Virus record (IMG/VR): IMGVR_UViG_3300030329_003925
Location: 1-64,000 of that record
Origin: a virus
Strand: one strand, 5' to 3'
DNA length: 64,000 nt
Part shown: positions 13,316 through 53,666 of the stretch, piece after piece
How the letters are laid out: every line of letters begins with the position of its first letter
How positions within the stretch are numbered: position 1 is the first letter of the stretch
Made by a program: the position numbers and the translations under genes
Notes under the pieces: model-generated
What the model saw: only the letters and a program-made list of their open reading frames with translations
The model's database searches: none
What the model was told of the DNA's origin: nothing

Positions 13316-13744
13316 TTAATACCATACTGGATTATCGAACCTTTTCATCGTCGAATAAAAATCATCGATAATCTGTCTATCCTCATCACTATAAATACCA
13401 CCGGGAGCAATAATTATTTTGTCATTTCCCACATTCGCTTTGATCTCGGCATTATAAGCCACATGACCAACGGGAACAAGGTCGCGGGAAGGATCTGCAC
13501 TCGGGACAATTACAAAGTCCCAGCCCATATCATCCGCAGGATTTATAAATTCTGACCACTCACCGTAATCGAATAATAGTTCTTTTGGCTCTCCACGAAA
13601 CTTCTTCATAGAGCCTTTGGGAAAATCAATGTGCATCTTCTGGTCTGGGTTGTCGCGGATGATTGCGATCATCTCATCCCTTGTCGGCACAATTGTCTTT
13701 TCTTCGTTCAAGAATTTCTTCCAATTTTCATAAAGCTTTTCCAT
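13316..13744 (-). CDS. Tagged inorganic pyrophosphatase-like protein
   Basis: MEKLYENWKKFLNEE tag; IDFPKGSMK, DYG...ADDMGWD and NDKII resemble family I PPase motifs. Confidence 0.55.
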   Translation of the reverse strand: MEKLYENWKKFLNEEKTIVPTRDEMIAIIRDNPDQKMHIDFPKGSMKKFRGEPKELLFDYGEWSEFINPADDMGWDFVIVPSADPSRDLVPVGHVAYNAEIKANVGNDKIIIAPGGIYSDEDRQIIDDFYSTMKRFDNPVWY

Positions 13745-13745
13745 G

Positions 13746-14192
13746 CTACACCATCATGATAATGCAAGCCACCAGATTATTGCTCATATGACACACAAGA
13801 GAAGCCTTAATGTTGCCTGTCTTATATTTGAACCACCCCAGAAGGAAAGAGATTGGCAACAAGCCTAAGACATGTAACAGGTCCACATGAATGAGAGCAA
13901 AAAGAATGCTGATGACGATATAAACTGTTTTCTCTTTCAGGAACCTCGACATGAAATTCCACAGAGCACCTCGAAAGATGGCTTCTTCAATAAGTGGAGC
14001 CACCACGATAATACAGAATAACATGAAATACTGTAAAAATCCATAAGTTTCTGCTCCAAAAATACCATTCACCATTTCTAGGTTCTGGGACTGAGTGCTC
14101 GGAACTAAGTTGGACAAGAGTGTCACAATAAAAGCAGGAACAATACTGATTAACGCGCCTCCCAGAAACGCTTTGGTGTAAGGGTATCTCAT
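13746..14192 (-). CDS. CPBP/Abi-family intramembrane glutamic endopeptidase
   Basis: EEAIFRG, FALIH, HMSNN motifs and several TM helices. Confidence 0.9.
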   Translation of the reverse strand: MRYPYTKAFLGGALISIVPAFIVTLLSNLVPSTQSQNLEMVNGIFGAETYGFLQYFMLFCIIVVAPLIEEAIFRGALWNFMSRFLKEKTVYIVISILFALIHVDLLHVLGLLPISFLLGWFKYKTGNIKASLVCHMSNNLVACIIMMV

Positions 14193-15070
14193 TTAATCTC
14201 CTCCAGCATATTGGCTAAGTCTAGACCGGCGCAATCTATCTTTTTTGACGTTATATTGTAGTGATTACAAAAGCCGTTAAATCGCCCTTTGTAGACCTCG
14301 TAATTTACCCCAGTGTCCAACCCCTCGGAAGCCATTGGAGCCACGAGAGGTACCTTACAAGCCAAGGAAACGGCTTTCCACAATGCCTTGGCAGCGTCAA
14401 GCTGAACTGGGTAGAATCCAAGGTGGGTTTCGAGAGGTTTTCCATGTACAATTGCATCAGTGATGACAGGTCGAGGACCAAAACGTTTCGTATACCAGTC
14501 TTGGTACTTTGGGTAGAACGCGTTACTAATTTCGACGCCAACACTCTTGGTGTTGACTATGCTGTTGCCTGCGTGCCATGCTCTGTGTTGCATATCGAGA
14601 AGTTGATAGATTGTTCCGTCATTGTCGATGCAGAAATGTACACTTACTTTACGCTTATTGAGGACGCTGGCGCACGACTTGGAACTCAGACAAACATCCC
14701 AGTGATTGACAAACATTGAAATGTCTCTAGGCTCTTTGCCTGAGTAGTCGGTATAAGTGCCCTTATTCATCCGCAGACCACCGGGCTCATCCCATGTCAC
14801 CACCTTATCCCATTCAATCGGAAAGAATTCGCCATTATAGACGATGTGCTCACCTTTGGGCTCATAATCGTCAATATTGGCTTGACGATCAGTGAAGATG
14901 CGTCGATAAGTCGAGGGTCCACAGAGACCATCAGCCGAAAGACCAAGGCTTCTCTGGAATTCCATAATTTTCTCAACGAGCTTCTCGTCGTAGTCATCTG
15001 CGCCAAACCAATCAGGCTTCCACCCGTAACGTCGGGATGAATTCAAATTATATTTTATTTTGCTGTCCAT
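14189..15070 (-). CDS. N-acetylmuramoyl-L-alanine amidase with peptidoglycan-binding domain (probable endolysin)
   Basis: FQRSLGLSADGLCGPST; SVHFCIDNDG, RAWHAG, SVGVEI, H...KIDC. Confidence 0.9.
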   Translation of the reverse strand: MDSKIKYNLNSSRRYGWKPDWFGADDYDEKLVEKIMEFQRSLGLSADGLCGPSTYRRIFTDRQANIDDYEPKGEHIVYNGEFFPIEWDKVVTWDEPGGLRMNKGTYTDYSGKEPRDISMFVNHWDVCLSSKSCASVLNKRKVSVHFCIDNDGTIYQLLDMQHRAWHAGNSIVNTKSVGVEISNAFYPKYQDWYTKRFGPRPVITDAIVHGKPLETHLGFYPVQLDAAKALWKAVSLACKVPLVAPMASEGLDTGVNYEVYKGRFNGFCNHYNITSKKIDCAGLDLANMLEEIK

Positions 15071-15091
15071 TGTCTGCTCCTTGCGATAAGA

Positions 15092-16606
15092 TTACCACCT
15101 CGATATCGGGTACATCGATGGCGGCGTGCCAGCCCCAATTCTTTGAAGCTCCATATGTTTCTCGGCTACGGCAGCTATTTTCTCGGGAGAGTCTCCAACA
15201 CGGAATTTGCCTTTGGGTCGATTATCGCCAGCAAGTTTAGATAATTTTTCAAGCGTTTTATAGGGAGTTTCTAAATTTCTTGCAATAGCCATTCGAATCC
15301 AACCATTTGCGTCTTCTTCACTGCTAAGACTGCCAAGTTTATCGAGCGTTTCTGGTGGGGTGTTTTCGTTCTTGGCAACAGCGGAGCGAATATACTCTTG
15401 CAGACTCCAATGTGAGTCTCGTTCGCCATCTTCACTCGCGAATGGCATGGATGCAAGCCTAGCCAATACTTTCGGGTACTTGGTCCGAGCCCCCAGTGTG
15501 TGTCGAACGGTTCCATCTTCATCGCCTTCATCGACATCTGCCAACGTCATGTGAATACCTTCTTCTGCGCTGGGGTTAGTGGCAATGTTTCGCCATATCT
15601 GAGTAGGGTTGCTTCCATGATAATGCACTATCAAGTCATATAAGACGCTGCTTGGGGTGTTCTGATTGCCAGCAATGTTTGTCAGCACGCCATCATCGTC
15701 AATGGCGATTGATGCTTGGAGCAGAGACTCTTTTGCCAACTGCTTTAATTCTTCGGGGTCAGTTGAGTTCTCTGCGCGTTCTCGTTTTTTCCAGTCGTTG
15801 ATAACATCATATTTTTCCGCTGCTCCAGTGGCGATTAGCATGTCTACCAATTTAGTGGCTTGCTCAGACTCAACGCTCCAATCATCCTCATCCATAAACT
15901 GTTCAGAGCCAAAATGAAATTGATATCTTGATCCACTCTCTTTGTGCTCGAAATAAAACAGTGGATCTTCTTCTTCGTAATATTGCTCGAAATAATCCAA
16001 GCCGGGAGCGGCAGTACACCATTCAGTACCTTTTCCAAGCTCACAGGCTGCGCCTTTATTGTGGATGGCATAAATTTTCCATTCTTCATCGTCCCGAAAG
16101 ACTTCGGTGCCCTCTTCGGCATCCATATATTTCTTCTCGGCTTGGTATGCCTTTATTTTGGGTTCTGCCTCGGCATAAACGTTCAGGAGATCGTCCAAAG
16201 TGTGTATGGTGAAGATGTCTTTCTTCTCCATGAACCGATGCCACTGAAAATAGAGTTCGAGATAGTGTCTGGTGATTCCAAGAGAGTCAGAAACTTTGGG
16301 ATCCCACAGTGTATCTGCAATTTCCTTATCTTTTAGTCCTCTTGATAAGATCCATTCGAGAGCAGTGCCTCTTTGGTTGTCGTCGAGGTCATCAGGAACC
16401 ATGTGTAACAAAGCTTTGGCGATCAAATCCGCCTTATACTCTATTTCGTTTTTTGAGAGCTTGAGCGTTCTGGATTCTGGATCCCATGCACGATTCTTGA
16501 TAAAGCTGCGCAAAACCTTGGAATTCTCCATACGATCTACCGCTTGTTCAAAAGATATTTCGGTGAGGAGAACGAATTTTCTCCACTCATTGAAGATTTC
16601 TTGCAT
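15092..16606 (-). CDS. Tagged protein with GTEWCTA domain and LRV-type (NxNTP) helical repeats
   Basis: MQEIFNEWRKFVLLTE; ACELGKGTEWCTA; repeats AGNQNTP, AKNENTP, ARNLETP. Confidence 0.65.
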   Translation of the reverse strand: MQEIFNEWRKFVLLTEISFEQAVDRMENSKVLRSFIKNRAWDPESRTLKLSKNEIEYKADLIAKALLHMVPDDLDDNQRGTALEWILSRGLKDKEIADTLWDPKVSDSLGITRHYLELYFQWHRFMEKKDIFTIHTLDDLLNVYAEAEPKIKAYQAEKKYMDAEEGTEVFRDDEEWKIYAIHNKGAACELGKGTEWCTAAPGLDYFEQYYEEEDPLFYFEHKESGSRYQFHFGSEQFMDEDDWSVESEQATKLVDMLIATGAAEKYDVINDWKKRERAENSTDPEELKQLAKESLLQASIAIDDDGVLTNIAGNQNTPSSVLYDLIVHYHGSNPTQIWRNIATNPSAEEGIHMTLADVDEGDEDGTVRHTLGARTKYPKVLARLASMPFASEDGERDSHWSLQEYIRSAVAKNENTPPETLDKLGSLSSEEDANGWIRMAIARNLETPYKTLEKLSKLAGDNRPKGKFRVGDSPEKIAAVAEKHMELQRIGAGTPPSMYPISRW

Positions 16607-16671
16607 ACAGATGGACCCTTTACAGTTAAATAGTTTTGATTTCTATAAACTGCAAGGAATGATTTCGTTGC

Positions 16672-17361
16672 TTACTTTTGCGATTTTAAAAATTCCTCCA
16701 CTGCGCTAACCGGCACAATCAACCCAACATCCTCGATAATGGTAGGAAGATTTGTAAGATCTGTTCCAACGCTTACCGCTGAAACAACTCCGACAATCTT
16801 TCCGTGCCTATCGAGAACTAGAGAGCCAGACGCCCCCTTCCAAATATAGGAATGAACAATGGTCATGAAGCCATCATATCCAGCAACATACCCTTTAATC
16901 GTAAGCAGACCCATTGAGTTTGGGTACCCGCTGTAAATTATTTCGTCTCCTATGTTGTGTTGGCGTGCAACGCGCCACCGAACTGGCTCTTTCGTCATCA
17001 TGCCCGCAATCGACACCAAAGCAACATCAGAATAAGAATCGAGGAACACTACTTCACCGATAATTATTTCTTTGTTGCCCGTTATCATCGCAGTAGGAGA
17101 GCCGTCCACCACATGAGCGGCAGTTAAAATATAATGCTCCCCTTTGTGGGTGACGTAAGCGCCACTTCCGCTTATCTTGTTACCCCATTCGTCAAAAGAC
17201 GCAATCTTGACCGCTGCATTTCTGCTTCGGTGCTCCAAACCGCTGTTAAACAGCGAAACGTGTTCAATGCTTTCGAATGTAGGAAGCGTATCGATATCAC
17301 AATCAACAGGCGTACACCCAAACAGCATAGACACTAGAACTAGCCTAGTTAAAACCCCCAT
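16672..17361 (-). CDS. Trypsin-like serine protease, lipoprotein signal
   Basis: LFGC lipobox; LTAAH, DVAL, GASGS triad. Confidence 0.9.
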   Translation of the reverse strand: MGVLTRLVLVSMLFGCTPVDCDIDTLPTFESIEHVSLFNSGLEHRSRNAAVKIASFDEWGNKISGSGAYVTHKGEHYILTAAHVVDGSPTAMITGNKEIIIGEVVFLDSYSDVALVSIAGMMTKEPVRWRVARQHNIGDEIIYSGYPNSMGLLTIKGYVAGYDGFMTIVHSYIWKGASGSLVLDRHGKIVGVVSAVSVGTDLTNLPTIIEDVGLIVPVSAVEEFLKSQK

Positions 17362-17439
17362 AATCTTATCCCCCTATTATTATATAGGGGACGGAAAGCA
17401 ATAATTCGCTAAACGTCGTAATTTAGCAATCTTTCGAGC

Positions 17440-18372
17440 TTAAACGTATTCGTCCACGTCTTTTTTGAGAGTGGTTGCGTTCTTCTGAGCTTTTAAAGCC
17501 GCTTGCTTAGCGTCTGGAGAGTTCAGAAAATATGTGTTGACGTTTCGTGACAACTTATCCATCTGGTCATAGATCTCTGTGAGATTGTCACCGAGTTGGT
17601 CGGCATACTTTTGCGCAATCTTTTTAATGTTCTCTCGGGACCCTAAATCGAGTGTCCCCAAGAAATACTCGTCTTTTTCAATGTCTCTCGTATAAATTCC
17701 ACTGCTTAAATCATACGAATCAAAATCTCCCGCAAACCCGCCTTCCCTATTTCCTATCGTAAACGAATAGAAATCAATACTCACGACAGTTCCGGTTTTG
17801 TGCTCTCTATTTTTAAGCGCCACAATATATTTTATTGGCTGCTGATATTTCTCAATTGCCGTTTCCAAGTTTTGCCAAGAGCCCTTGATATATTTGGGAC
17901 CCGCAAACAGCAACTTCAGACTCAGGGGCTGTCCTTCTGCGTCGAGGAGATCTTCAATAGCTTGATAGCGCCCGCCCGGTGTGGGAACCTGACGAGCCTG
18001 ACCCCCTAAAAGCACAGCCAAGATAGATTCGAATAAGAATCCGCCCGTCTTATCGTTAAAATCGTAGATTAAAGATGCAAGAGAGTCCAGAAAAACAAGA
18101 TTGCCGAGAATCTCAGGAATATCCTTGGTGGCTACACAGGCTTCGTCACAATCTTTTACAAACTGCTGAAGAGATGCGATTTTTTCACCCAGCGTGTTAC
18201 CTTTGATTTTGGACGTAAACATTTCAATAATCTGACGATCATCGGTTCCCGGCTCACCCCACTTCTCTGAAATTTTAAAGCTCGGAAGGGAAATGGTTCC
18301 CTTTTCACCGCCTTTTTCCAATTGGGCTTCTTCGGATAGAAATTTATTCCAATTTTCGAATAAGAGATTCAT
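17440..18372 (-). CDS. Tagged protein, possible restriction-endonuclease-like (PD...SxK) fold
   Basis: MNLLFENWNKFLSEE tag; GFLFES...IEDL...LSLK pattern. Confidence 0.45.
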   Translation of the reverse strand: MNLLFENWNKFLSEEAQLEKGGEKGTISLPSFKISEKWGEPGTDDRQIIEMFTSKIKGNTLGEKIASLQQFVKDCDEACVATKDIPEILGNLVFLDSLASLIYDFNDKTGGFLFESILAVLLGGQARQVPTPGGRYQAIEDLLDAEGQPLSLKLLFAGPKYIKGSWQNLETAIEKYQQPIKYIVALKNREHKTGTVVSIDFYSFTIGNREGGFAGDFDSYDLSSGIYTRDIEKDEYFLGTLDLGSRENIKKIAQKYADQLGDNLTEIYDQMDKLSRNVNTYFLNSPDAKQAALKAQKNATTLKKDVDEYV

Positions 18373-18992
18373 TTTTTGACAAGCTCCTTATTAACTATGT
18401 CGTAGCCGTCAACAACGCCAATGTTAAAATAGTCGAAACCGTCCAGAAGTGCTATCTTTTGCTCGGCAAAGTCCCCCAGCATATTATATACGCTCACCTG
18501 CCCAACCACTTCTGTAAACAAGGCTGGTGCTGCTGCTGGGGGTAAAGTCTTTAAGTGTGCATTGTAGGCTGCATACTCGCCCCTCAAGGTAAATTCTGTC
18601 CCCCTTGAGCCAATTGCTTGAATATGTGACATATAATCGTGGATGGCTCTAAACTTGGCATTCGTAACTTCGTCAAAGATGTCGTGATCAGCATCAATGG
18701 TGGCGATTCTCATCTTGCCGGTTGTATTTACTTCATCACGCAGTTCTTGTGCCGATTCATATGGGTGATAGTCTACGAACTCCACGTCCACTCTTGATTG
18801 AATCTGTTTAAACATCTTTTCGATAAAAGGAACCATAGCTTCGAAACTGGGAACAGCCCTTTGTTCAAATTTTGGAGCAGCCATATAAGCATCGGCAACA
18901 AGTTGAGCATACAAGTCCCAGCCGTTAGGACCGGGCTTGAGCATCAGCTTCTCGTTGAGGAAACCTCTCCAATTTTCAAAAAGGTTCTGCAC
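18369..18992 (-). CDS. Tagged hypothetical protein with a His-rich metal-binding-like motif
   Basis: MQNLFENWRGFLNE tag; FRAIHDYMSH...GEYAAYNAH. Confidence 0.6.
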   Translation of the reverse strand: MQNLFENWRGFLNEKLMLKPGPNGWDLYAQLVADAYMAAPKFEQRAVPSFEAMVPFIEKMFKQIQSRVDVEFVDYHPYESAQELRDEVNTTGKMRIATIDADHDIFDEVTNAKFRAIHDYMSHIQAIGSRGTEFTLRGEYAAYNAHLKTLPPAAAPALFTEVVGQVSVYNMLGDFAEQKIALLDGFDYFNIGVVDGYDIVNKELVKK

Positions 18993-18997
18993 TAGTT

Positions 18998-20026: not shown

Positions 20027-20587
20027 TTTGTTCTATCCTTATCGTCGTCGCGTTTTGCGGGATGCTTGTGACCCTCTTCGATAGTTGGCTCTATGTCTTC
20101 TGCTAAGAGGTTTCTAACAATTGTGTCTCCAAATTTCATGTCATAGATGCCAATTTCACCGCTCTCGTTGAGTGAGTGCCAAAGCACTTTGCCAACTGGG
20201 TTTTTGATTCCGTATCTTTCTTGTAAGGCTGAACTCAGCCTTCCTTCCTTCATTCAAGTGTGTTCTAGGTCTTTTAGCTCATCTTCGAGTTCTTTTTTTC
20301 TCTTTGCTTGAGCTTTTGTAAGTTCTTCCTTGATGAGATTTCTAAGCTGTGTTTTTGTGATTTTCATTTTATGCTCCTATCGCTTTTTTCTGGGCGGGTG
20401 TGAGGATATTGTCTTGGATTGCTCTGATAACCTCGTCGGCTGTGGTATTGTAGGCTTTCGTAACCCTGCCTATTAAGCCCTCTATCTCGTCACCAACTGC
20501 CACGCTTAACATTGGTCCAGTGTTTTCCGTCACGGATGCAAGTTCTTCCTTGATAATCTGTTTAAGTTGTGCTTTTGTGATTTTCAT
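20023..20587 (-). CDS. Three short ORFs (20369-20587, 20254-20367, 20023-20253); the first two carry the MKITK tag
   Basis: MKITKAQLKQIIKEE; MKITKTQLRNLIKEE (37 aa, manual translation). Confidence 0.6.
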
Positions 20588-21152
20588 TAAATTTTATCCC
20601 TTGTACATTCTTCAGGCAAATGAGACTTGGGGTCTTCTTTGTAAGTCTCAAGTGTCGGCTGCTCCCAGTTTAAAAGAGGGCAATAAAGGCGATGATCGCT
20701 CTTGTCTTTCAAGAACAGTTCCAGACCGAGAACATCATTTCTCAAGCCCTCGACACCTTTTTTGCAATCCTCCACATCTTCATCCGCAGAATCCTGCTGC
20801 TCTTGCGGAGCAGGTTCAACCACGGGGTAGGGAGGATAGAATGTCGTGGACCCTATAAGGGGGACCAAAAGCCATTTGCTCATTGTGCCGTCACCAATTG
20901 TTCAATACGCTGCAACGCAGCCTTCATATACTCTATATCTTTTTCGATGGAGATGATTGCGCGGCTATTAGCCTCTGCTTCTTCCACCTTTTGCTCAAGG
21001 GCAACGACAGTTTCTTCTGCGTCACCAAGATCGTTTTCCAACTGCGCCACGGCAACGTTTACATTCCAAACCCATCCAGCTAGAGGGAGGACAACAACGC
21101 CGAGAACAACAGTGAATATTTTCCATATCCATTCATTAGTCGTAGTAGCCAT
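20587..21152 (-). CDS. Two membrane/secreted proteins (20880-21152 TM plus coiled coil; 20587-20883)
   Basis: Hydrophobic N-termini; late motif at 21157-21164. Confidence 0.55.
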
Positions 21153-21155
21153 GTC

Positions 21156-21431: not shown

Positions 21432-21475
21432 AAATTCGCCCCCCTAAAGTATATAGGGGGCAAAAGTGCAATCGC

Positions 21476-22853: not shown

Positions 22854-23309
22854 CTACTTTTCTATTTCTCTTATTGTGCCGCAAACATTTATAGGCTCTA
22901 TGGGTTCATAGTCGCTTATTTGGAAGTCATTTGACTCCATACTTTTCGCTTCTACAAGGGGGTTTGTAGCTATCGTAATATGAGGGTGGTTGGGACCCCT
23001 CATCGGAAGTGCAACGCCTTCTAGGTCCACTAGAGCGCTTGCTACGCGGTCGTTTAAAGCGATACCCACAACTTTGACGCATAAACCAGTCCCAAGCCAG
23101 CGAGAAGGTAGCCTTCTCTTCATTTCTGGAGGGCTGATGATGGTCATGTGGTGTGCAATGGGCGTCCAGCCCTCTGGGGCATACGGAACCAAGGCTCGGT
23201 GACCCAAATCGTTGAGGACAAGCCCTGTATACTCGATATGTTTAGCCATATCGGTCCCAAGGGAGATCTCGGACAGATGATCGCGCCAATTTTCAAGTAG
23301 GAGCTTCAT
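22854..23309 (-). CDS. Tagged 2H phosphoesterase (cyclic phosphodiesterase-like)
   Basis: MKLLLENWRDHLSE tag; two HxT motifs, HHMTI and HITIA. Confidence 0.8.
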   Translation of the reverse strand: MKLLLENWRDHLSEISLGTDMAKHIEYTGLVLNDLGHRALVPYAPEGWTPIAHHMTIISPPEMKRRLPSRWLGTGLCVKVVGIALNDRVASALVDLEGVALPMRGPNHPHITIATNPLVEAKSMESNDFQISDYEPIEPINVCGTIREIEK

Positions 23310-23695
23310 TCTACTCCTCCGAACATTCTCTTGAATATTTTGGGTGTATCTGGATTATCCAGATCTAAAATCTTTGCTTTTATCGTCTCAACCTTTTGGT
23401 TGATAGCCTTTTGTAGTCGATGGTTGCCGTCTAAGACATACTTAAACTCGCCACCTTTTCTTACAACTATGATAGGAAACTCTAAACTTGCTGCTTTAAC
23501 TCGCTCTTCACCGCGTGTTGGAAGAGGAGGTATCTGATTAGAAAGTTCTAAAACATTAAGATCAACTGTTTTATTACCCAAGAAGTCATCAATCTCACCG
23601 AGTGTGACCTTTTCTTCGTCGGTTTCCCACGATGTATCACGCCAACTTTTGTTTTCGTTGATAAACTTGTTCCAGTTTTCAAGTATGAGTTTCAT
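23306..23695 (-). CDS. Tagged ParB/sulfiredoxin-like domain protein
   Basis: MKLILENWNKFINE tag; FPIIV...VLDGNHRL. Confidence 0.75.
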   Translation of the reverse strand: MKLILENWNKFINENKSWRDTSWETDEEKVTLGEIDDFLGNKTVDLNVLELSNQIPPLPTRGEERVKAASLEFPIIVVRKGGEFKYVLDGNHRLQKAINQKVETIKAKILDLDNPDTPKIFKRMFGGVE

Positions 23696-24891
23696 TGCCC
23701 AATAAATCCTACGATATCGTTATAAGTATTGTCCAGTTGTCGATTATGGATGGCAGCAAGAACTTTTCTGAAAGCATCACCTATCTGTTGTCCTCGGAAT
23801 CCTAGTTCCATCATCTCTCTGCCGTTAATGTCGAGTTCCTTGGGAGAGAGAGGAAACTGTAATGCCTCTTCAATCTTGTCGGCTTGCTGAGTCATGCCAG
23901 CCTGCCGAAGAACACTAGCAATCAAGGGGAGTCTCCCTCGTTGTCCGCCCCCATACTCATAAACTTCTTTTGTATCCTCGGCTGCTTCCTGAGCAAGTTC
24001 AAGATATTGAACCATTTCGTTGGTGGGGCGCATCATATTGTGGTCGCCCCCTTCCAGAAAGAACGCAATGAAGTTGCCGAGTGTCTTGTCTTGGTTGTTG
24101 CCCCCGACCTCGATTGCGTAGGGATTAAAATCTTCTCCAAATATTGTTTTCCCGATTCCTGTCTCCTTCAAGAGCGAAACCAGTATATGGGCGTTGCCCG
24201 AGCCTTTCGTCCACGCCTTTGCAAGCTCCATAAACAGGCGTTCACCTGCAACCGACCCAATATCTCCCACATTTTTCTTGATGGCGTCTAAAGTTTCAGG
24301 CTCAATGGCGAAACCAAAGCGAGTGGCGAACTGAATAGCACGAAACATTCTCAAGGGATCTTCTTTAAATCTCTCATTAGGATCTCCCACGGTTCTGATA
24401 ATTTTATTTTTTAAGTCTTCCTGTCCTCCGAACAAATCTATGATATTGCCTTCGGAGTCTTTGGCGAGAGCATTGATGGTAAAGTCTCTTCTGCCCAAAT
24501 CAGACTCCACAGGAGCATTGGGATCTGTCTCCACATCAAACTCTGTGTGTTTCTCGCCCGTCTTTGTTTCGGAGGTTCTGGGAATGGCAAAGTCAAATTC
24601 CTCTCCATCAATTGTTGCAGTCACCACCCCAAATGCTTGCCCTACCTCTTTTACTTTTCCGAGAGGAGACAAAACAGAAACAATATCAGAGAGTGACAAG
24701 CCACGCACAAGGAAATCAACATCTTTGGATGGGGGAGTGTCAGGCAGGAGTTCATCTCGCACTGCTCCTCCTACAATATAACTTTCACCACCGCCCTGCT
24801 CTAGTGCTGCTTCAATCTTTTCAATTGTAGCTGGATCGACTGCTTCATTGAGTTTCACAAACTCTCGCCAATTTTCAAGTAGGAGTTTCAT
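23692..24891 (-). CDS. cca: Tagged tRNA nucleotidyltransferase (CCA-adding/poly(A) polymerase family)
   Basis: VGGAVRD, DVD, DLGRRDFTINALA, EDPLRMFRAIQF; start moved to MKLLLENWREF. Confidence 0.9.
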   Translation of the reverse strand: MKLLLENWREFVKLNEAVDPATIEKIEAALEQGGGESYIVGGAVRDELLPDTPPSKDVDFLVRGLSLSDIVSVLSPLGKVKEVGQAFGVVTATIDGEEFDFAIPRTSETKTGEKHTEFDVETDPNAPVESDLGRRDFTINALAKDSEGNIIDLFGGQEDLKNKIIRTVGDPNERFKEDPLRMFRAIQFATRFGFAIEPETLDAIKKNVGDIGSVAGERLFMELAKAWTKGSGNAHILVSLLKETGIGKTIFGEDFNPYAIEVGGNNQDKTLGNFIAFFLEGGDHNMMRPTNEMVQYLELAQEAAEDTKEVYEYGGGQRGRLPLIASVLRQAGMTQQADKIEEALQFPLSPKELDINGREMMELGFRGQQIGDAFRKVLAAIHNRQLDNTYNDIVGFIGQ

Positions 24892-24982: not shown

Positions 24983-25210
24983 CTACTTGTTCATGATGGT
25001 CATCAGCACCCAAAGGGCAACCAGACCAACGAGACCTTCGCTTCCAAGCTGAGCAGTAATGTCGATAACACTACCGACAACATCCAGAGGGAAGAACGGC
25101 ACACTTGCTCCGAAAAGCACCTGAAGCACAACAGCGAGGGCGAGCAGAGACACAGAAAAATCTGTGAGCCCCTTAACCCAAGTTCCGGCTGTTTGTAATC
25201 TTTCCAACAT
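24983..25210 (-). CDS. Small two-helix membrane protein
   Basis: Hydrophobic 75-aa ORF with AGGAGG RBS. Confidence 0.7.
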   Translation of the reverse strand: MLERLQTAGTWVKGLTDFSVSLLALAVVLQVLFGASVPFFPLDVVGSVIDITAQLGSEGLVGLVALWVLMTIMNK

Positions 25211-25329: not shown

Positions 25330-26588
25330 TTACGCAGTCTGGGGCTTTCCGACCATGATCTTCATGTGTTTTTCGCCGCCAATGTCTCGGGTATACCATC
25401 CATTGTAGCCATCGTATTTGCCCTCTGGGTGAGGACCGATCCATTCGATCTCTTTTCCAAGAGTCTTGCGAACTGTTTCTTCGTCATTTACGGGAGGAAC
25501 GCCGTGATACTTAATCAGCACATGTGCTAGACCTTTGGAAACCTCGCCATAGAACCCATCATCAAACATCATTTCAGCGGTCTTGTTGATGTATCTCTTA
25601 ATAGCCTCTTGGGAACCATCGTGACCACCGGCACCCAATTTCTTGCCCTTATTGATGCGCAACACATCAGGCTTCGGGTCACCATCAATATCCAGTGCAA
25701 GATAATTGTCGTATTTGCCCGGTAGATCTTGAGCCTTCTGGAGTTTTATGTGCCCTCCGATGCTCTTGTAAGCAGTATTAATAAGATTGAATAGCTCTCC
25801 CGCTATGTTAACGTCGCCGCCTTGCTCCGTCGCCGCTTGACGTATATCTTCGACTGGCACGGTAAACCATTCATCCTTGGCAATCCCATAATCTTCCCAT
25901 TTTTTCTCTTGGAGACCATCTGGCTCCATATATGGATGGTCATCAAGATATTTTTTCATGCGAGGATCAACTTTTTCCTCTTTCATGAATTTGCGCCAGT
26001 TTTCGAATAGGAGTTTCATTTGTTCCCTCTTGGTGAATTCACCAGATCAATCCATGTCGTCAATGCGGTTATAGTCGGGATCATTTGCCAGCACATCAAG
26101 TGCTTCTTCTAAGCGTCTGATAACAAGGTGGGTCGTTCCCGGCTCGTCACCTCCATCTTGGAGCATCTGAATAGCGTCTTGGATATGGTATGCCACGGAA
26201 CCCTCTTCGGGTACGCCTTCATCGGTGCCCACAGTAAACGGTAGGTCAGTCTTAGAACCGGCGCCGCCTATTTTCGTGAAAGTAACGTTGGGGCGGTCGA
26301 ACAGGTCGTCTAGTTCTTCCTTGATGACTTGTTTCAGTTTTGCTTTTGTGATTTTCATTTCTTTGCCATCTCCATCTCAATGTCATCAGCCATCGTTCTA
26401 AGCACCCTTATAACATGTGCATCGCCGCGCAACTCCTGTAAATCAATCACCGCGTTGACGAGCTTGTCTCCGATTTCCGCGTCCACCTTCCAGTCATAGT
26501 CGCGTGTAGTGCCATCTGGGTATGGGAATTCGCCTTCTTCTAGCTCTTCCTTAATGATTTGTTTTAATTTTGCTTTTGTGATTTTCAT
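25330..26588 (-). CDS. Three tagged hypothetical proteins (26355-26588, 26047-26358, 25330-26019)
   Basis: MKITKAKLKQIIKEE, MKITKAKLKQVIKEE, MKLLFENWRKFMKEE. Confidence 0.7.
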
Positions 26589-26593: not shown

Positions 26594-27649
26594 CTATCCT
26601 TTAATTGTTCGATAGAAATATTCAGTCCAGATTCTCTGAGATTCTGAAAGTGTTCGGGGATCGTGCTCACCGGAGACGCCTTTGCCTGTGGCTTTCCCGC
26701 GTTTTCCGAGATATTCTTTGCTTCGACGGCGAGAATAATCATTGGGGACAATATATTTTTCGCCATCTGGTAAAATAACTGTCAAATCGCCGCCAACATT
26801 GATCTTTTTAGCGACCATTTCGACCCACGAGTCCCAAAGTTGCCTAGAGATGTCAGCAGTTTGTGTAAGTTCAGCAATATGCTTGAGAAAATCAATATAT
26901 CGCTCAGCCAACTTGATGCCGCCCTTGGTAAGAGTTATAATTCCGCTGGCTTTGTCCCTCTTTTTGCCGGGGGTCTTGAATGTTGGGTGCCCTTTGTCGT
27001 TGACTGTGATCAATTTGCCTTCTGGGTCGAGCCCCTTATAGAGATTCATGTTGATAGAATCGATACAGCCCAAGCGTCCAATGACCAATTGCGATGCAAA
27101 GGCAGCTTTGGGCAGACCAAGCCCCGGAACAGTCATCAACTTGAGATAAATTTCAAATTGCGCCTCTTCTTGAGCAATTGTATTACCTCCAGCGTTATTA
27201 AACTTGTCGATGACAGGCATAATGTCTGCATAGAAGGAATCTCGGTTCTCCCAGATGGATTGAATGGCATTTTTTCTGAATCCGAGGGTCAGAGAGCCAA
27301 TTGTTTTGGGAAGATGGTAAAATCTTTTTCCTTTTTCGTCCACGCTGGACTGTTTTGGGTCCAAAAGCATGTCGTGTTCACGAATATAAGCCATGAGGAT
27401 AGGAAATTTCTCAACCACGTCATACCAGCGCGATCTTTGCGTTGCAACGACAAAAATAAGCATTTCTGCCATCCCTTCTGGTGAAGATTGGGCATATTGG
27501 TTGATTGTGGGGTTAAATTCACAAAAACCAGAGTCAAGTTCGCCAGAAAGGTCCAAAACATTGGGATCATCATCGATTTCGATCTCAATTTCTTCTTCTT
27601 CCTCGGCTTCTTTGAGAAATTTTCTGAAATTTTCAATTAATAGCTTCAT
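26594..27649 (-). CDS. Tagged helix-hairpin-helix DNA glycosylase/lyase-like protein
   Basis: MKLLIENFRKFLKE tag; LMTVPGLGLPKAAF...GCIDS (HhH with Lys and downstream Asp). Confidence 0.6.
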   Translation of the reverse strand: MKLLIENFRKFLKEAEEEEEIEIEIDDDPNVLDLSGELDSGFCEFNPTINQYAQSSPEGMAEMLIFVVATQRSRWYDVVEKFPILMAYIREHDMLLDPKQSSVDEKGKRFYHLPKTIGSLTLGFRKNAIQSIWENRDSFYADIMPVIDKFNNAGGNTIAQEEAQFEIYLKLMTVPGLGLPKAAFASQLVIGRLGCIDSINMNLYKGLDPEGKLITVNDKGHPTFKTPGKKRDKASGIITLTKGGIKLAERYIDFLKHIAELTQTADISRQLWDSWVEMVAKKINVGGDLTVILPDGEKYIVPNDYSRRRSKEYLGKRGKATGKGVSGEHDPRTLSESQRIWTEYFYRTIKG

Positions 27650-44160: not shown

Positions 44161-44234
44161 TGGGCTTTCTCGGACTCGAACCGAGGACATTCCGTGTATG
44201 AGACGGGTGCTCTGACCAACTGAGCTAAAAGCCC
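44161..44234 (-). tRNA. tRNA with CAU anticodon (probably Ile2; Met not excluded), CCA not encoded
   Basis: GGGCTTTTAGCTCAGTTGGTCAGAGCA-CCCGT-CT-CAT-AC-ACGGA...GGTTCGAGTCC. Confidence 0.88.
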
Positions 44235-44243
44235 GTTACTAAC

Positions 44244-46062: not shown

Positions 46063-46154
46063 GTTTTCACCTCTCGTTGATTACAATAACAATGTATCAC
46101 GTTTTAAGAATTTGTCCAGTCCTAAGTTGTCAAGAGAATGTCAAGGAGAAGAAA

Positions 46155-46236
46155 TACCAGAGACGGGATTCGAACCCGTAAGCCTAAAGGCGTCAGATTT
46201 TAAGTCTGATGTGTATACCGATTCCACCACTCTGGC
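46155..46236 (-). tRNA. tRNA-Leu(UAA), CCA not encoded
   Basis: GCCAGAGTGGTGGAATCGGTATACACA-TCAGA-CT-TAA-AA-TCTGA, long variable arm, GGTTCGAATCC. Confidence 0.93.
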
Positions 46237-46248
46237 AAAAGTTACAAA

Positions 46249-47314: not shown

Positions 47315-47412
47315 AGTTCCCTCCGCTTTCATACATAATGTAGCCCATGCGTGTTCCCCTGTCAAGAGTGATTGTGTCAAGGAAGTGTCAAGAGAAGGTT
47401 GTGTCCATAAAA

Positions 47413-47569
47413 CGATGGTGGGCGCATCTGCGTTTAATGCTTCGTGGAACTCTATCTCAGTTGAACCCCTACGTTATCCCGTGCTACTAAGGCGATCAAC
47501 CCCTTTCACTTGGCGTAGTCCGTTGGTAACCGTCCGTCTGGGACTTTAACCCAGAATCTCCCACCACCG
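47413..47569 (-). ncRNA. Candidate structured ncRNA B (about 157 nt)
   Basis: Own promoter at 47602-47630; 10-bp closing stem with one G:U; internal hairpins; 3' TTTT. Confidence 0.55.
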
Positions 47570-47659
47570 ATTTGTGAACAAAACCTCCCGCTTACACACA
47601 CAATGTATCATGGGTATTGCCACCTGTCAAGCCCGTGGGTGTCAACGAATTGTCAAGAA

Positions 47660-48607: not shown

Positions 48608-48616
48608 GGCTGCACC

Positions 48617-49949
48617 TCACTCAGTTGGTGGTCCCAAAGCATTATGGGCAGCTAAGGTTTTCACAAAAGCCTCCATGACGCCCCTTCGAAGATAGAAATG
48701 GAGAGTAGCCAAAGTCTCGTCCTCCGCAATTTCTTTTCGCATCTCCTGAAGTCGTCTCCTAATCTGGTCAATCCTCAAGCCACCGTAGCCTTGAACTAAT
48801 ACCTCGGCTTTCTCTGGGCTTCTTTCGTCGCCTTTTGGTTCGTAATACATGGGGTTTCCACCCTCATCATATTCGACTTCTACGAGACTTGTAAGTTCTT
48901 CTTGGATGAGTTTCCTTATTTTGGACTTGGCGATTTTCACTTATAGTCTCCCTGCTTGGCGTTTATAGCAAAGTTGAGTTGGCGAACCGTCTTCACCTCA
49001 TCTGCGGTTCTCTTTTTCTTTTTCATGAGTGCAGCTTTTTTCTTTTTGAGTTGGGCAATCGTGTAATCGGTCCACTCTCCTGTGGACTCGATGTCTTGGA
49101 GAAACTTGTCATCATTCTCCTTGTTGCTTTCATCATACTGGTAACGGGGGCGACGATAGCCTTTATATTTGCTTCGATAGCCACTATCACGGCGCGGGTA
49201 GTCTCCGCTCCGACGTTGATATGACCTTATGCACTCCTCATATTCTTCCCGTGTAAGACCACCTGCTTTGTAATCCTTGTAGCAGTCGGCTTCTTCTTCG
49301 TTTATTGGCTTGCCACCTTCGTTGACTGGGGTGTCACCAACCATGTCTTGCCCGCCATCCATATCCTGATAGCCAGTTGCCTCATTGTAAATAAAGTTCA
49401 CCAGCCAGTTCTTTTCTTTACGCGCCAAAGCATCTTTGGCTAACGCAGTAGCACCGGCTTCGTAGCCCAGACGCGCCAAGAGCGCAGCCAGCATGGGCAC
49501 CGCGAAGGAGGTTCCCATCTTCACCATAGCTCGCCACAACAAGTCAAGGTTCTCTGGTGTGAGATTCTGCATGAGCGTGTCGATGTCTTCATTGAGTTGC
49601 TGTTCTTCCAGTTGAGCACGGATGCCTTCGCCAAACATTTCCTCTGCTTCTTCGTTGGTCAGGACGACTTCAAGCTCCTCTTTTATAATCTGCTTGAGTT
49701 GCTTCTTTGTGATTTTCATTTTTCTTCGCCTTCAGATATGATTAGCTCATCAGACAGGCGAGCAATCTCATCTTGGTGACCCTTTGGCGCATAGTCAATG
49801 CACATGGCAACCAGCCCGCCCAATTCTGGTCCCAGCTTGTCGTGGAGCCATTGGGAGATCGCTGCATGGAAGTGAGGTCCATCCTTTTCAGCGAGAGCCT
49901 CGATCTCTTCCTTGATAAGTTGCTTAATTCTTGCTTTTGTAATCTTCAT
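48617..49949 (-). CDS. Three MKITK-tagged hypothetical proteins (49716-49949, 48937-49719, 48617-48940)
   Basis: MKITKARIKQLIKEE, MKITKKQLKQIIKEE, MKIAKSKIRKLIQEE; late motif at 49969-49976. Confidence 0.7.
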
Positions 49950-49976
49950 GGGGGGTGTCTCCTCACAATAAATAGT

Positions 49977-50273
49977 TTAGTATTCTTCTTTCTCACCATC
50001 ATCCCATGTCAAAATTGTTTTGTTTTCTGGATGCGGTTTGATATGGACCTTGAGGAAGTCTGCCATTGAATCAAAGACGGCAATAGACCCTCTTGGTGGC
50101 GGGTAAAGCCAGTGAACAACCGCTTGTCCGGTTGCCAGCTTGATACCCTCAATCACAATTCCTTCGCCCGACACGCCAGTTTCGTCATGCCCGCGAAAAA
50201 TTGTAAATGTACGAATCCCCTGCGGAGCCAACTTGGGGGGGTGTTTAGGCTTCAAATCATTCTTTTTCGCCAT
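49977..50273 (-). CDS. Hypothetical protein
   Basis: 98-aa ORF, DETGVSGEG motif. Confidence 0.65.
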   Translation of the reverse strand: MAKKNDLKPKHPPKLAPQGIRTFTIFRGHDETGVSGEGIVIEGIKLATGQAVVHWLYPPPRGSIAVFDSMADFLKVHIKPHPENKTILTWDDGEKEEY

Positions 50274-50997
50274 GTTGTTTCTCCAATTCTTTCCTAATAA
50301 GTAGTTCCGTCATTTGCCAATTTTCGACTTGGCAGGCGGTATCTCCTGCTTTTAAGGCTCTCGCGGCTGGGAAGTCATTACCATTCGGTCCCATCTTGTC
50401 GCCCATGAATACAATTGGCAAACCATGAATCTCGCGCACCATGTTAACTGCTTGAGACTTATCTTTGCCCTTGGGATAAATGTCAATACTTATTTCTCCT
50501 CCGATGGAAACATCCACGTTTCTAAACTCTTTGGGCTGCGCCAGAATTGTGATGGCAATACTCATACGCTCACGCTTGCGCTCATCCCACTCATGGTATC
50601 TGGCTCGTTCTTCCAGCGTAGCGTTTCGCCCCACAACGGAGAAGTTTAACATTCCCGGTCGGTGCTCAAAATGCTTCCCCGTCTTGAGAGGGAAGTCCGA
50701 CTCCTCCACGCAGCGTTCGAGAAAAGTTACTAATTGCGGGTGAGGCTGAAATTCATGGCTATAAACCCTCTTGCCCCTTTCCCAGAATTCATTTCCAGAG
50801 CAGGCGAAAACTCCTTGGCACATCGTCAGGACACGCTTGTCTACCTGTTCTCTCGCCTTCTCGATGTCGCTCCCTGTTGCCAAATACACGATGTTTTCCT
50901 TGGCGAATGGGAGAAAAAACTCCGCGAAGTTCTCATCCATCTTTTGACGTGGCGGCGTGAGTGTACCGTCGATGTCAAACAAATATACTTTACTCAT
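50257..50997 (-). CDS. HAD-IIB phosphomannomutase-like enzyme (eukaryotic PMM type)
   Basis: FDIDGTLTPPR, GSD, RPGMLNFSVVGR, IGGEISIDIYPKGKDK, GDKM..GND. Confidence 0.9.
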   Translation of the reverse strand: MSKVYLFDIDGTLTPPRQKMDENFAEFFLPFAKENIVYLATGSDIEKAREQVDKRVLTMCQGVFACSGNEFWERGKRVYSHEFQPHPQLVTFLERCVEESDFPLKTGKHFEHRPGMLNFSVVGRNATLEERARYHEWDERKRERMSIAITILAQPKEFRNVDVSIGGEISIDIYPKGKDKSQAVNMVREIHGLPIVFMGDKMGPNGNDFPAARALKAGDTACQVENWQMTELLIRKELEKQHGEKE

Positions 50998-51187
50998 CTA
51001 AGCCTCTGCGGTTGGTGTTAATCCCTCTAAGATGACCTCCGACAAATTCTCCATCATGGCTTTGTCTGCATCTTTTATCTCCTCAAGCATGAACCAGAGT
51101 GCTTCGTTTTCATCCTTGAGTCTTTCTATTTCTTCTTCTGCTTCTTTCAATTGCTGGAGCAGTACGTCGTGCTGTGGGCAGGTCATT

Positions 51188-52194
51188 TTACCACTCCTTG
51201 CAGGACCAGTAGCCTGCTGTGAGTTTATCTTTTTTGTCATCGCAGTTATGACGCGCACGGAAATTGGACTTTCTGTCTGGATCATCGCTCTTGTCTTCCA
51301 AGTTGGCATCGCCAAACCGAACAATACTCTCTTTGCCGTCCTGACAGCCTTTAACAACCTTTTGCTTCTTTCCGTATCCCGGCTCTCCTTTGCGAATGTA
51401 GCGGGGACTATTGCATTTCATCCGGTCCTTGTCGGTCCCCTCTGCTTCTTCAAGGGACTCTTCCTTGGTAGCTTTTTTCCATGACTTTTCGTCTGGATAG
51501 TCCTTGTCCCCCGGCTTTGCAGGGGCTTCGCCACGCGCTCTTTTGGCACGGATATTCTGAAACAGATTAGAACCTTCAGCGAGTGCCTCGATTTCTTCCC
51601 TTATGAGGGATTCAAGAAATTCACGTTTCATGGTCAAGCACTCTTCTTAGCCTGAGCAGTGGCAATCGCCATCTTCTTGTCCATTGGCATATCAGGATTG
51701 TCTTTCTCCATAGCCTTGGCAATCTCTTCTCGTTTGTCTTCTTCTGCGTCGGTCAGCTTTCTTTCCGCAAGTTCGTCTTGATCAACAAGGTGGTCGTACT
51801 CACCGCGTTCCCACTTCTGGTCTTCGATCCATTCCTCGTCAACAAAGCCTTGACTGACTTTCGACATGGCAGCTTCAGCAGCAACACCAAGCTCACGAAC
51901 CATCGCCATAGCCTCTTTGCCAGAGATACCTCCGGTGATAGCCATGTTCCCAAGAGCCGCAAGGAAGCCATCAAGGTTGTCAACCTCGCCCGTGGGAAGC
52001 CTGATGTTTCCACCAGTCAATATGGAATCGAACAACTCCTCCGTCACGTCTGTGGTCCACTGGTCCATCATGCGTTCTTGGTCGGTCATCTCGCTTCCGT
52101 AATTAGGAGAGAGGTCTGTTAGCTCATAAGCCTCAAGCACCTTTGCTGCCTCTTCTTTGATGATTTGTCTAATTTCTTTGGTTGTGATTTTCAT
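51188..52194 (-). CDS. Two tagged hypothetical proteins (51634-52194, 51188-51637)
   Basis: MKITTKEIRQIIKEE; MKREFLESLIREE...FRARHNC...YWSC; late motif at 52218-52225. Confidence 0.7.
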
Positions 52195-52227
52195 TCCGAA
52201 TCCTCCGGGGATATTTATAAATAGTAT

Positions 52228-52881
52228 TCATTCCGCCCCAAAACCCAATTCTTTTAACTCTGCGATAGCCGAGGCTGAATCTCCAAAGGCACACCGAATG
52301 GCGATACCTCCATGCTCTGCCCAAGGAATCAAGTTCTTGTCCCAATCGTCGATCAAGATGTTGGGTCTTCCATCTGTGGTTGCCCACTTCCACTTATCGT
52401 GGCTCATGTAAATCTTGGTTGGCTGCGGGTTTAGGTGACTGCTTATCCATGCTCGTTTGCCCTCCTGTGACCCTTCGTCCATCGGAGAAGTGAGGATGTA
52501 AGGGCTATAGGGCGAGATAAAACTCCACAATTCCTGACCTCCCGGCATCTCTGGGAGTTCTGACCAGAACCTAACATCGTCACCAAAATTCTTATACATG
52601 TAGTTGCGAACTGCTTTACTGTTACTTCCACCGCCCTTTCTCAAGTCCGTCACATCAATTTGTAACTCTCGATCAGCGGCGACCAGAGCTTTACGCACCC
52701 TTCCTATGTTTGTAATTCCCCCCGTAGGCTTGCGGTCGGGCTTAGAGTCGTCGAGGAGTTCAATGTTAATCTGATCGACGACCCCCTTTTCAAAGTCCAC
52801 AAGGACGCCATCCATGTCGCAATAGATTTGCGGCAACCGATTTTGCTCCTCGTTGAGAAAATTTAACCAACCCTTATACAT
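52228..52881 (-). CDS. Tagged HAD 5'(3')-nucleotidase-like phosphatase
   Basis: MYKGWLNFLNEE; YCDMDGVL, ILTSP, ILIDD. Confidence 0.85.
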   Translation of the reverse strand: MYKGWLNFLNEEQNRLPQIYCDMDGVLVDFEKGVVDQINIELLDDSKPDRKPTGGITNIGRVRKALVAADRELQIDVTDLRKGGGSNSKAVRNYMYKNFGDDVRFWSELPEMPGGQELWSFISPYSPYILTSPMDEGSQEGKRAWISSHLNPQPTKIYMSHDKWKWATTDGRPNILIDDWDKNLIPWAEHGGIAIRCAFGDSASAIAELKELGFGAE

Positions 52882-53666
52882 TATAACTGCCTCAAGCTCC
52901 GTGGGATATATCTCATCACGATGCAACCGGGGATTTCTCGACTGTTAATGGTCGGAATAAGAATCTGCTTGACGTAGGTTTGCCCCGTCATGGCTTCTTT
53001 AGCTGGGTGAAATTTCACCCGAATAGTCGAGACGATCCCCCCTCCGCTCTTTTGGGATTGGAGGGAGGATACTATTGTCACGCCGGGAATTGAGCGAATG
53101 TCAGCCAAGGTATCGTCAATTCCAGCTTGCCTCTGAATCTTGATGACAAGCTCGGCTTCAAACACTCTTAGCTTCTCTTCTTCAGCCTCGTTAAGAAGGT
53201 CGTACAATTCCTCATCATCGTAGTAATCGTCTTCGCTTTCCAGCTTGTCCGTTACCGATGCTTCAGATTCTATCTCGACGATAGCGTGGGGGGGTACATC
53301 ACCAACGAGATAATATGCGTCGAAGTCGGGTAGCTCCATATCGTCGTGAACTTCTGGTGTAGGCTTCATCTTAGCGATATTAACCTTTACAAATACAAAG
53401 GGAGGCTGTGCGCCTCCAAATATACCAGAGTCAGGACGAGAAAACGCAGCCATAAAAGCAGAGTCTTGCGAAGAAAAAAGATAAACTCTCTTCTCTTTGG
53501 CATCCTCTTCGCTGTATGAATAATCACGGTCACCGGCTTGAGAGGAACCACGAATACCGTGGGCTTTAATACCCTCTTCGTTTTCCGCACCAGTTACATG
53601 ATAGTACATTCTTGGCTTTTGATATTGAGCCTCTTCCCTAAACTTCTGCCAACCTTCTAAAATCAT
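52881..53666 (-). CDS. Tagged ADP-ribosyltransferase-fold protein (Tpt1/KptA-like) plus a second C-terminal module
   Basis: MILEGWQKFREE; YHVT..ENEEGIKAHGIR, VYL, GDVPPHAI. Confidence 0.55.
   Translation of the reverse strand: MILEGWQKFREEAQYQKPRMYYHVTGAENEEGIKAHGIRGSSQAGDRDYSYSEEDAKEKRVYLFSSQDSAFMAAFSRPDSGIFGGAQPPFVFVKVNIAKMKPTPEVHDDMELPDFDAYYLVGDVPPHAIVEIESEASVTDKLESEDDYYDDEELYDLLNEAEEEKLRVFEAELVIKIQRQAGIDDTLADIRSIPGVTIVSSLQSQKSGGGIVSTIRVKFHPAKEAMTGQTYVKQILIPTINSREIPGCIVMRYIPRSLRQL

Follow-up and report, generated by a model that had tools for sequence, protein, structure and literature searches.

Portable N-terminal tags on unrelated proteins of a viral contig and its relatives: candidate capsid-loading signals resembling that of phage T4

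In a 64,000-nucleotide stretch of viral DNA (positions 1 to 64,000 of IMG/VR record IMGVR_UViG_3300030329_003925; hereafter, the window), many otherwise unrelated proteins begin with one of a few short conserved peptides, or tags. Sequence logos define two main classes: the ENW tag, with the consensus [LI][LMF]-E-N-W-[RNK]-x-[FY]-[LIV]-x-E, and the MK, or MKITK, tag, with the consensus M-K-I-T-K-x-Q-L-K-Q-I-I-K-E-E-[LIV]. The tally of tagged proteins on the 77,219-bp contig that is the source of the window is about 25. The tags end in (L/I)-x-E, the cleavage motif of the T4 prohead protease gp21. We think it probable, with some reserve, that they are an expanded set of capsid-loading signals akin to the T4 capsid targeting sequence (CTS).

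The internal proteins of T4 share only the 10-residue CTS, which targets them to the prohead core and is removed by gp21 after a Glu (PMC9026906, PMC3012670). Foreign enzymes are loaded at 20-200 copies when given no more than the first 10 residues of IPIII, gp21 likewise trims Alt, a packaged enzyme, and a review has proposed that the CTS lets T4-like phages take in varied proteins (PMC9026906). The loading principle is therefore known from T4. New here are the consensus sequences of the two main tags, the abundance of tagged genes (about 25 in 77 kb, as against 3-4 in T4), the hundreds of cargo families, the swapping of tags with a fixed L-x-E junction, and the presence of enzymes of the RNA-end-repair type among the cargos. 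We found no paper describing these tags, and a full-text search on capsid targeting in metagenomic T4-like phages gave nothing relevant.

Tags at the start codons of the contig

A preliminary description of the window, made from its letters and open reading frames (ORFs), listed 24 tagged starts. All 24 exist, and all are on the minus strand, which carries nearly all long ORFs of the contig. Hidden Markov models (HMMs) of the two tags were trained on other contigs only and compared with the six frames of the 77-kb contig (1471 stop-to-stop segments, 99,133 residues). The MKITK model gave eight matches (at 20587, 49719, 26358, 20367, 26588, 49949, 52194 and 48940), with independent E-values (i-E) from 3.6e-13 to 9.5e-4, and the ENW model gave another eight (at 26019, 27649, 18372, 23695, 18992, 23309, 24891 and 13744; i-E from 6e-6 to 3e-3). 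Every one of these 16 significant matches begins at the start codon (the ENW model from residue 2), and the next-ranked matches, with E > 0.1, are in short non-coding frames. A loose regular expression likewise placed the motifs at ORF starts on the coding strand only; neither this search nor the six-frame HMM search located a tag inside a long ORF of the contig.

The assignment of starts to the two classes holds for these 16 and needs some amendment elsewhere. The starts at 16606, 48607, 52881, 51631/51637 and 20026 fall below HMM significance, and we regard them as diverged tags because their orthologues in related contigs have canonical tags on the same cargo. The tag at 53666 is a short form, M-x-x-E-x-W-x-x-F, in which W6 is invariant in 21 orthologues. 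Position 51637 is a TTG, and the ATG at 51631 is a likelier start; 24891 and 53666 are internal ATGs within longer GTG frames, both supported by orthologues and the latter additionally by promoter spacing. The starts at 8719 and 8424, originally counted with the MKITK class, make up a third, T4-CTS-like class. MKLSQEFIRE at 8719 is identical in 7 of 10 positions to MKTYQEFIAE of T4 ipII/ipIII (read from NC_000866), a CTS that was defined by experiment (PMC9026906), and 8424 and an extra candidate at 59967 are roughly alike in this respect. The orthologue of 8424 in locus L054 starts with MKKLNKKLITEMIEE, which is intermediate between the CTS-like and MK classes.

Tag anatomy and the protease-type motif

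Conservation of the ENW tags collapses directly past a terminal Glu, which is located two residues after the last hydrophobic position in 86% of 224 unique tags; this residue was required by neither the DNA pattern used for retrieval nor the regular expression. The [LI]xE motif is present in 85% of ENW tags, compared with 7-13% in control windows. Among MK tags, 60% contain a further [LI]-x-E at residues 16-26, besides their built-in I-K-E (control windows, 7-8%). The family of 2H phosphoesterases contains an orthologue with an MK tag where the others have ENW, and the L-x-E|ISLG junction is retained: across the tag swap E14 does not vary, and L12 is kept in at least 90%. In two AlphaFold2 (AF2) models, for 23309 and 53666, the tag is predicted as a separate helix with a pLDDT < 50 that is not packed against the cargo domain (residues 2-16, detached, in the former and 2-15 in the latter).

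Two short resemblances to T4 proteins, each possibly due to chance, may be recorded here. The N-terminus of T4 gp21 reads ...LLIETW..., with a predicted self-cleavage site LIE, and is similar to the first half of the ENW tag (LLLENW); and IDLIKEE in T4 gp67 resembles IIKEE of the MK tag.

The phage lineage and the spread of the tags

Megablast of 15 kb of the contig against 50,697 deposited phage records detected no near relative, and tblastn searches of the same records with a 77-aa MK-tagged protein and a 139-aa protein encoded after the protease gave no match. Many of the fetched tag-bearing loci encode proteins 45-78% identical to those of the window, which places them in one broad lineage, and the sources of the loci, which include Tara, point to a marine habitat. 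Taken together, the sequences indicate a lineage of uncultured marine T4-like phages. The contig is 43% complete (CheckV). It is colinear with G003, a complete relative of 203 kb assembled in this analysis, from 163 kb across the genome end to 29 kb; the part of G003 that it does not cover is the structural block, and this colinearity would place the head and protease genes in the missing part of the contig.

A degenerate DNA pattern of each tag occurs in at least 120 IMG/VR stretches, and the same patterns occur in 3 and 5 places in 596 Gb of prokaryote genomes. Seven of the eight prokaryote-bin matches are tag-headed ORFs on contigs of metagenome-assembled genomes (MAGs), and the eighth is a chance 29-aa frame. 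As four of the seven MAG loci have proteins in common with the phage lineage, at up to 88% identity, these four are probably mis-binned phage DNA. The tags are essentially restricted to viruses. The MAG labels (L257-L264) comprise Planctomycetota, Isosphaeraceae, Opitutia, Woesearchaeota and Pelagibacter TMED166, and the excess of the PVC superphylum among them may or may not be a hint of the host.

A census of cargos covered 234 loci, this contig and G003, about 2 Mb in all, and included 250 ENW-tagged and 246 MK-tagged ORFs. The cargo parts of these 496 ORFs fall into 323 families, of which 255 are singletons; together with the logo of the tags, this bears out the earlier statement that similarity ends after the tag. 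Five cargo families, and likewise the 2H enzyme family, are found with either tag. By strict patterns, for which reversed controls gave 0-1 matches per genome, the ENW/MK counts are 6/6 in this contig, 0/10 in G001, 8/1 in G003, 1/2 in G004 and 3/3 in G005. The possibility that the tags are remnants of paralogy was considered and rejected: the cargos fail to align past the tag, and their folds differ.

Two relatives have tag-like segments within longer ORFs. In G004, an ENW-like FNNWRKFLTE is found about 500 residues into a frame of locus L139, directly before an NT5C-like domain, and the 352-aa MK-tagged protein at 106766-107824 of G003 has a second MK copy at residues 228-249. Cleavable polyproteins, gene fusions and internal starts are possible explanations.

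Late-type motif and timing

The preliminary description had placed the tagged genes in units headed by a late-type motif, and the layout of the contig agrees: seven ACTATTTA motifs head seven co-directional units that hold every tagged gene. Besides the copy in Table 1, these motifs are at 16627, 21157, 27668, 49969, 52218 and 53687; further copies on the minus strand are at 321, 3209, 28422 and 30807, and the analysis counts the region of 32-49.9 kb as early-type, with neither motif nor tags. ACTATTTA(T) is strictly strand-specific: the coding strand has 15 copies, typically ~20 nt upstream of a start codon, as against 0 on the opposite strand. In G003 (L240-L250), the motif is upstream of the unit with a scaffold-like gene and the major capsid protein (MCP), and also of genes that we read, by position and N-terminus, as tail sheath, tail tube and baseplate. 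On these grounds ACTATTTA is probably the late promoter of the lineage; it differs from the T4 motif, TATAAATA.

Several genes of the late units are untagged, namely those for membrane proteins, a lipoprotein and a peptidoglycan-binding-like protein (13746-15070, 16672-17361, 20587-21152 and 24983-25210), which possibly represent a lysis cassette. The tag thus marks a subset, the soluble ones, of the late proteins.

A T4-type head in the relatives

Peptidase_S77, the family of the gp21 prohead protease, is encoded by each of the five large relatives to which the tags led; the nearest cultured homologs, at ~40% identity, are from Flavobacterium phage immuto, Caulobacter phage Cr30 and cyanophages. 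The portal, protease and MCP of G003 match T4 gp20, gp21 and gp23 with E-values of 7e-26, 6e-24 and 4e-27, respectively, and L-R-E in the G003 MCP aligns with the maturation site L-T-E|A of T4 gp23. The G003 protease is encoded at 123334-123987 of that genome. The head cluster of G003 itself includes tagged proteins. An acidic 114-aa MK-tagged protein adjoins the gene in the terminase position, and an acidic 182-aa ENW-tagged protein is encoded two genes upstream of the protease, where T4 has gp67/gp68. A further protein common to the relatives, of ~140 aa, is encoded after the protease, and its N-terminus resembles the MK tag only marginally. Complex prediction with the scaffold-like protein of G003 and residues 1-45 of an ENW-tagged protein gave a score of 0.00 in a run without controls and is not used as evidence.

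Cargo

The claim that captured enzymes are placed behind the tags stands for several ENW cargos. In 24891, the match to PF01743 (PolyA_pol family, E = 1.9e-22) begins only at residue 38, which makes the tag an N-terminal extension of a CCA-adding or poly(A) polymerase-like enzyme. Homologs of 23309 carry PF08302, and its model matches CNPase catalytic domains. The fold of 53666 belongs to the ADP-ribosyltransferase (ART) superfamily, with Tpt1/KptA and DarT nearest, although the match is moderate (Foldseek E = 6e-5, TMt 0.42). Weak leads from the ESM Atlas were ART-like (0.85) and, for 27649, Ogg-HhH glycosylase (0.91), and the ART-like one was taken on to the fold search. The enzymes are completed by 48607, identified by weak Pfam matches as a Pol-beta nucleotidyltransferase, and the NT5C-like nucleotidase at 52881. 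Most MK cargos and the small head-cluster proteins of G003 have no family in Pfam and PHROG searches.

The tagged CCA-adding enzyme, the 2H cyclic phosphodiesterase (CPDase) of the tRNA-ligase CPD/CNPase type and the Tpt1/KptA-like fold look like one RNA-end repair set (22854-24891 and 52881-53666). A 1156-aa protein with cytidyltransferase-type PHROG matches is encoded nearby (3182-6652). Together with this protein, the tagged repair-type enzymes resemble the tRNA repair logic of fungal and plant Trl1 and Tpt1.

The two classes had also been taken to differ in cargo, with MKITK mostly on acidic proteins, and to represent two sorting classes. The first proposal fails, as both sets are mildly acidic (median pI 5.0 and 5.25) and MK cargo is no more acidic than ENW cargo; the real difference is in length, with median totals of 194 aa for ENW and 105.5 aa for MK. 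The second is weakened by this similar acidity, by the families that accept either tag, and by the relatives, which mostly use one tag.

Proposed mechanism and alternatives

We propose that the tag forms a 12-22-residue amphipathic helix at the N-terminus of a late-expressed soluble protein, and that this helix would make the protein co-assemble with the prohead core. A gp21-type prohead protease would then cut the tag off at its terminal (L/I)-x-E, and the cargo would remain in the head, from which it could exit with the DNA. The tag would be a portable module, with one class replaceable by another, carried by hundreds of unrelated proteins of the lineage. A portable packaging and processing tag, as first suggested for the window, fits every in-silico test made here (head and protease of the relatives, L-x-E end, tagged acidic proteins in the head cluster, late motif, modularity, tag swaps and confinement to viruses), and we infer core binding, cleavage, packaging and injection of the tagged proteins.

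Several observations weigh against this proposal. The contig itself has no head or protease gene, and the link to a T4-type head comes from the relatives. The tag matches in the G003 head cluster are moderately significant (E = 0.0085 for the MK-tagged and 0.025 for the ENW-tagged protein, in 1114 ORFs). In sequence identity, the ENW and MK tags come little near the T4 CTS: the MK start, the amphipathic pattern and the I/L-x-E end are all that their consensus sequences have in common with it. The cultured T4-like phages that we checked (Syn9, S-PM2, HTVC008M and immuto) are without these tags: they have 0 matches to the MK pattern and no more matches to W..F[LIVM].E than to its reversed control. 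Most cargo is mildly acidic, unlike the basic internal proteins of T4; some cargos, for example the deoxyribonucleotidase, would be useful simply as late intracellular enzymes; and dozens of cargo kinds per genome are far above any tested case.

A more ambitious version of capsid loading, which we hold to be rather unlikely, is that two or three interchangeable tags load dozens of proteins per virion, including the RNA-end repair set, which would be injected as a counter-defence kit, with the tag classes specifying position in the head or time of release.

Unlikely, too, is a role of the tags as docking helices for a complex other than the capsid, such as a phage hub, a chaperonin or a multi-enzyme RNA-repair body, in which the terminal Glu would serve helix or interaction chemistry. 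Several ENW cargos do belong to one pathway (CCA-adding enzyme, 2H CPDase, Tpt1-like fold and nucleotidyltransferases), the contig encodes GroEL and a MoxR-like AAA/VWA pair, and a gene can be expressed late without its product being packaged. However, 323 unrelated families, mostly small proteins without known function, are too broad a range for one pathway complex. The tag lies outside the cargo fold, its end is the gp21 site and matches the aligned MCP maturation site, and acidic proteins of the head cluster are tagged as well.

The tags might instead load expendable scaffold or filler of the prohead core, degraded and expelled at maturation, so that nothing functional is delivered. Many MK cargos are indeed short, acidic and of low complexity, like T4 gp67 and gp68, and the T4 core proteins are cut to fragments that mostly leave the head (PMC9026906). 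What makes this explanation improbable to a considerable degree is that some ENW cargos are folded enzymes whose catalytic motifs are intact, for example the invariant H-x-T pairs and the complete head domain of PolyA_pol; in filler, keeping these would be pointless.

It is very improbable that the conserved 5' ends act as nucleic acid, either as translation enhancers of late mRNA or as homology blocks for cassette shuffling, with the peptide as a by-product. The first codons are A-rich (ATGAAAATCACAAAA), and tagged genes cluster in variable regions between conserved genes, as such a role would have it. Yet synonymous codons differ among the tags while the residues are kept, so that selection acts on the peptide; the conservation is amphipathic in pattern and stops at a defined Glu; structural late genes are untagged; and tags are found both on first genes and on internal genes of operons.

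Leaders that a modifying enzyme recognises, as in ribosomally synthesized and post-translationally modified peptides (RiPPs), have the same general architecture of one leader on many bodies, but we give this explanation hardly any credence, given that Radical_SAM was not matched in this contig or in the complete relatives G003 and G004, that no other enzyme family was conspicuous for its co-occurrence with the tags (no formal test was made), and that the most frequent neighbour is found in 17 of 234 loci.

Relation to known systems

For the preferred reading, capsid loading, the closest known system is that of T4. As with the CTS of IPI, IPII and IPIII and the Alt propeptide, an N-terminal peptide of 10-20 aa is the sole shared part of unrelated proteins; the tags end in (L/I)-x-E, and relatives in the lineage have a gp21-family protease and T4-type portal and MCP. 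The tagged enzyme with the ART-superfamily fold parallels T4 Alt in kind. The differences from the CTS are that the ENW and MKITK tags follow consensus sequences of their own and extend further (about 14 and 15-22 aa), that the lineage has hundreds of cargo families with tags swapped between orthologues, and that the cargo is mostly acidic rather than basic.

In giant phages (phiKZ, 201phi2-1 and SPN3US), many head-internal proteins, among them propeptide-bearing ejection or inner-body proteins, are cut by a gp21 homolog C-terminal to the Glu that ends a short motif, and the DNA is accompanied on delivery by a large load of protein (PMC9026906, PMC5694885). The lineage described here has T4-like head genes and does not belong to the chimalliviruses. 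To our knowledge, the propeptides of giant phages are long and do not constitute a shared short tag. Encapsulin cargo-loading peptides are similar in that a short portable peptide directs unrelated enzymes into a shell of the HK97 fold; encapsulin tags are usually C-terminal, bind the shell directly, are not known to be cleaved and belong to cellular compartments.

If the tags work like the T4 CTS, common uncultured marine phages would deliver a large and fast-evolving set of proteins with their DNA. In that case the tag would allow injected proteins, in hundreds of families, mostly of unknown function and likely rich in anti-defence and host-takeover factors, to be picked out directly from metagenomes by a simple sequence feature, and it would be a source of new short loading peptides with which phage capsids could be engineered to carry proteins.

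Tagged genes and other features of the window

Table 1. Tagged ORFs of the window, with one late-type motif, in order of position
Feature	Coordinates	Strand	Remarks
T4-CTS-like tag (V)KTLTKEFLIE, 114 aa	8080..8424	-	orthologue in L054
T4-CTS-like tag MKLSQEFIRE, 103 aa, acidic	8408..8719	-	first in unit, late-type motif 23 nt upstream
Late-type promoter motif ACTATTTA (probable)	8742..8749	-	heads tagged unit
ENW-tagged ORF, 142 aa	13316..13744	-	HMM i-E 1.8e-3 at start codon; tagged orthologue in L133; cargo without assignment
Variant ENW tag MQEIFNEWRKFV, 504 aa	15092..16606	-	orthologues start with canonical ENW tags; weak LRV-repeat matches (Pfam LRV below cut-off); first gene of unit, late-type motif 21 nt upstream
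ENW-tagged ORF, 310 aa	17440..18372	-	HMM i-E 8.5e-6; cargo without assignment
ENW-tagged ORF, 207 aa, GTG start	18369..18992	-	HMM i-E 1e-4; four tagged orthologues; phrog_3170
Variant MK tag MKISKAQAKKLLYE, 342 aa	18998..20026	-	>10 orthologues with canonical MKITK tag; cargo of the commonest MK cargo family
MKITK-tagged mini-ORF, 37 aa	20254..20367	-	HMM i-E 4e-10
MKITK-tagged ORF, 72 aa	20369..20587	-	HMM i-E 3.6e-13
ENW tag + 2H (CNPase / tRNA-ligase CPD type) phosphoesterase, 151 aa	22854..23309	-	two invariant H-x-T motifs
ENW tag + small ParB/Srx-like domain (weak), 129 aa	23306..23695	-	HMM i-E 1e-5; phrog_17560 3e-12, ParB-like PHROGs 6e-4
ENW tag + CCA-adding / poly(A) polymerase-family nucleotidyltransferase, 399 aa	23692..24891	-	PF01743 1.9e-22; HMM i-E 3e-3
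ENW-tagged ORF, 229 aa	25330..26019	-	HMM i-E 6e-6; tagged orthologue in G003; cargo without assignment
MKITK-tagged ORF, 103 aa, acidic (pI 4.1)	26047..26358	-	HMM i-E 4.6e-11
MKITK-tagged ORF, 77 aa	26355..26588	-	HMM i-E 7e-10
ENW-tagged ORF (ENF variant), 351 aa, acidic linker after tag	26594..27649	-	HMM i-E 1.3e-5; five tagged orthologues; first gene of unit, late-type motif 19 nt upstream
Diverged ENW tag + Pol-beta-type nucleotidyltransferase, 315 aa	47660..48607	-	PF01909/PF18765 weak; orthologues with ENW-type tags, except an untagged one in L129
MKITK-type tag VKIAKSKIRKLIQEE, GTG start, 107 aa	48617..48940	-	HMM i-E 9.5e-4
MKITK-tagged ORF, 260 aa	48937..49719	-	HMM i-E 3.4e-11
MKITK-tagged ORF, 77 aa	49716..49949	-	HMM i-E 6e-9; first in unit, late-type motif 20 nt upstream
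Variant MK tag MKREFLESLIREE, 147 aa	51188..51631	-	L058 orthologue with canonical MKITK tag, same cargo
MKITK-type tag MKITTKEIRQIIKEE, 186 aa, acidic	51634..52194	-	HMM i-E 6.7e-7; first in unit, late-type motif 24 nt upstream
Truncated ENW tag MYKGWLNFLNEE + NT5C/HAD-type 5'-deoxyribonucleotidase-like, 217 aa	52228..52881	-	phrog_2643 2.4e-21; eight orthologues with canonical tag at same junction
Short ENW-like tag + ADP-ribosyltransferase-superfamily (Tpt1/KptA, DarT-like) domain + ferredoxin-like C-domain, 261 aa	52881..53666	-	late-type motif 21 nt upstream
MKSFEQLVKE start, 380 aa (extra candidate only, absent from the preliminary description)	58825..59967	-	regex scan

Beyond the tagged genes, the contig encodes GMP reductase and a DnaE-like polymerase, in addition to the GroEL, MoxR-like AAA/VWA pair and CCA-adding enzyme mentioned above. 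The window genes most common in the sampled tag-bearing loci are those for a 308-aa protein with an MGFKKPP motif, a 253-aa protein and a 119-aa protein (window positions 6905-7831 and 2065-3185), with 17, 12 and 12 matches, respectively, across the 234 loci.

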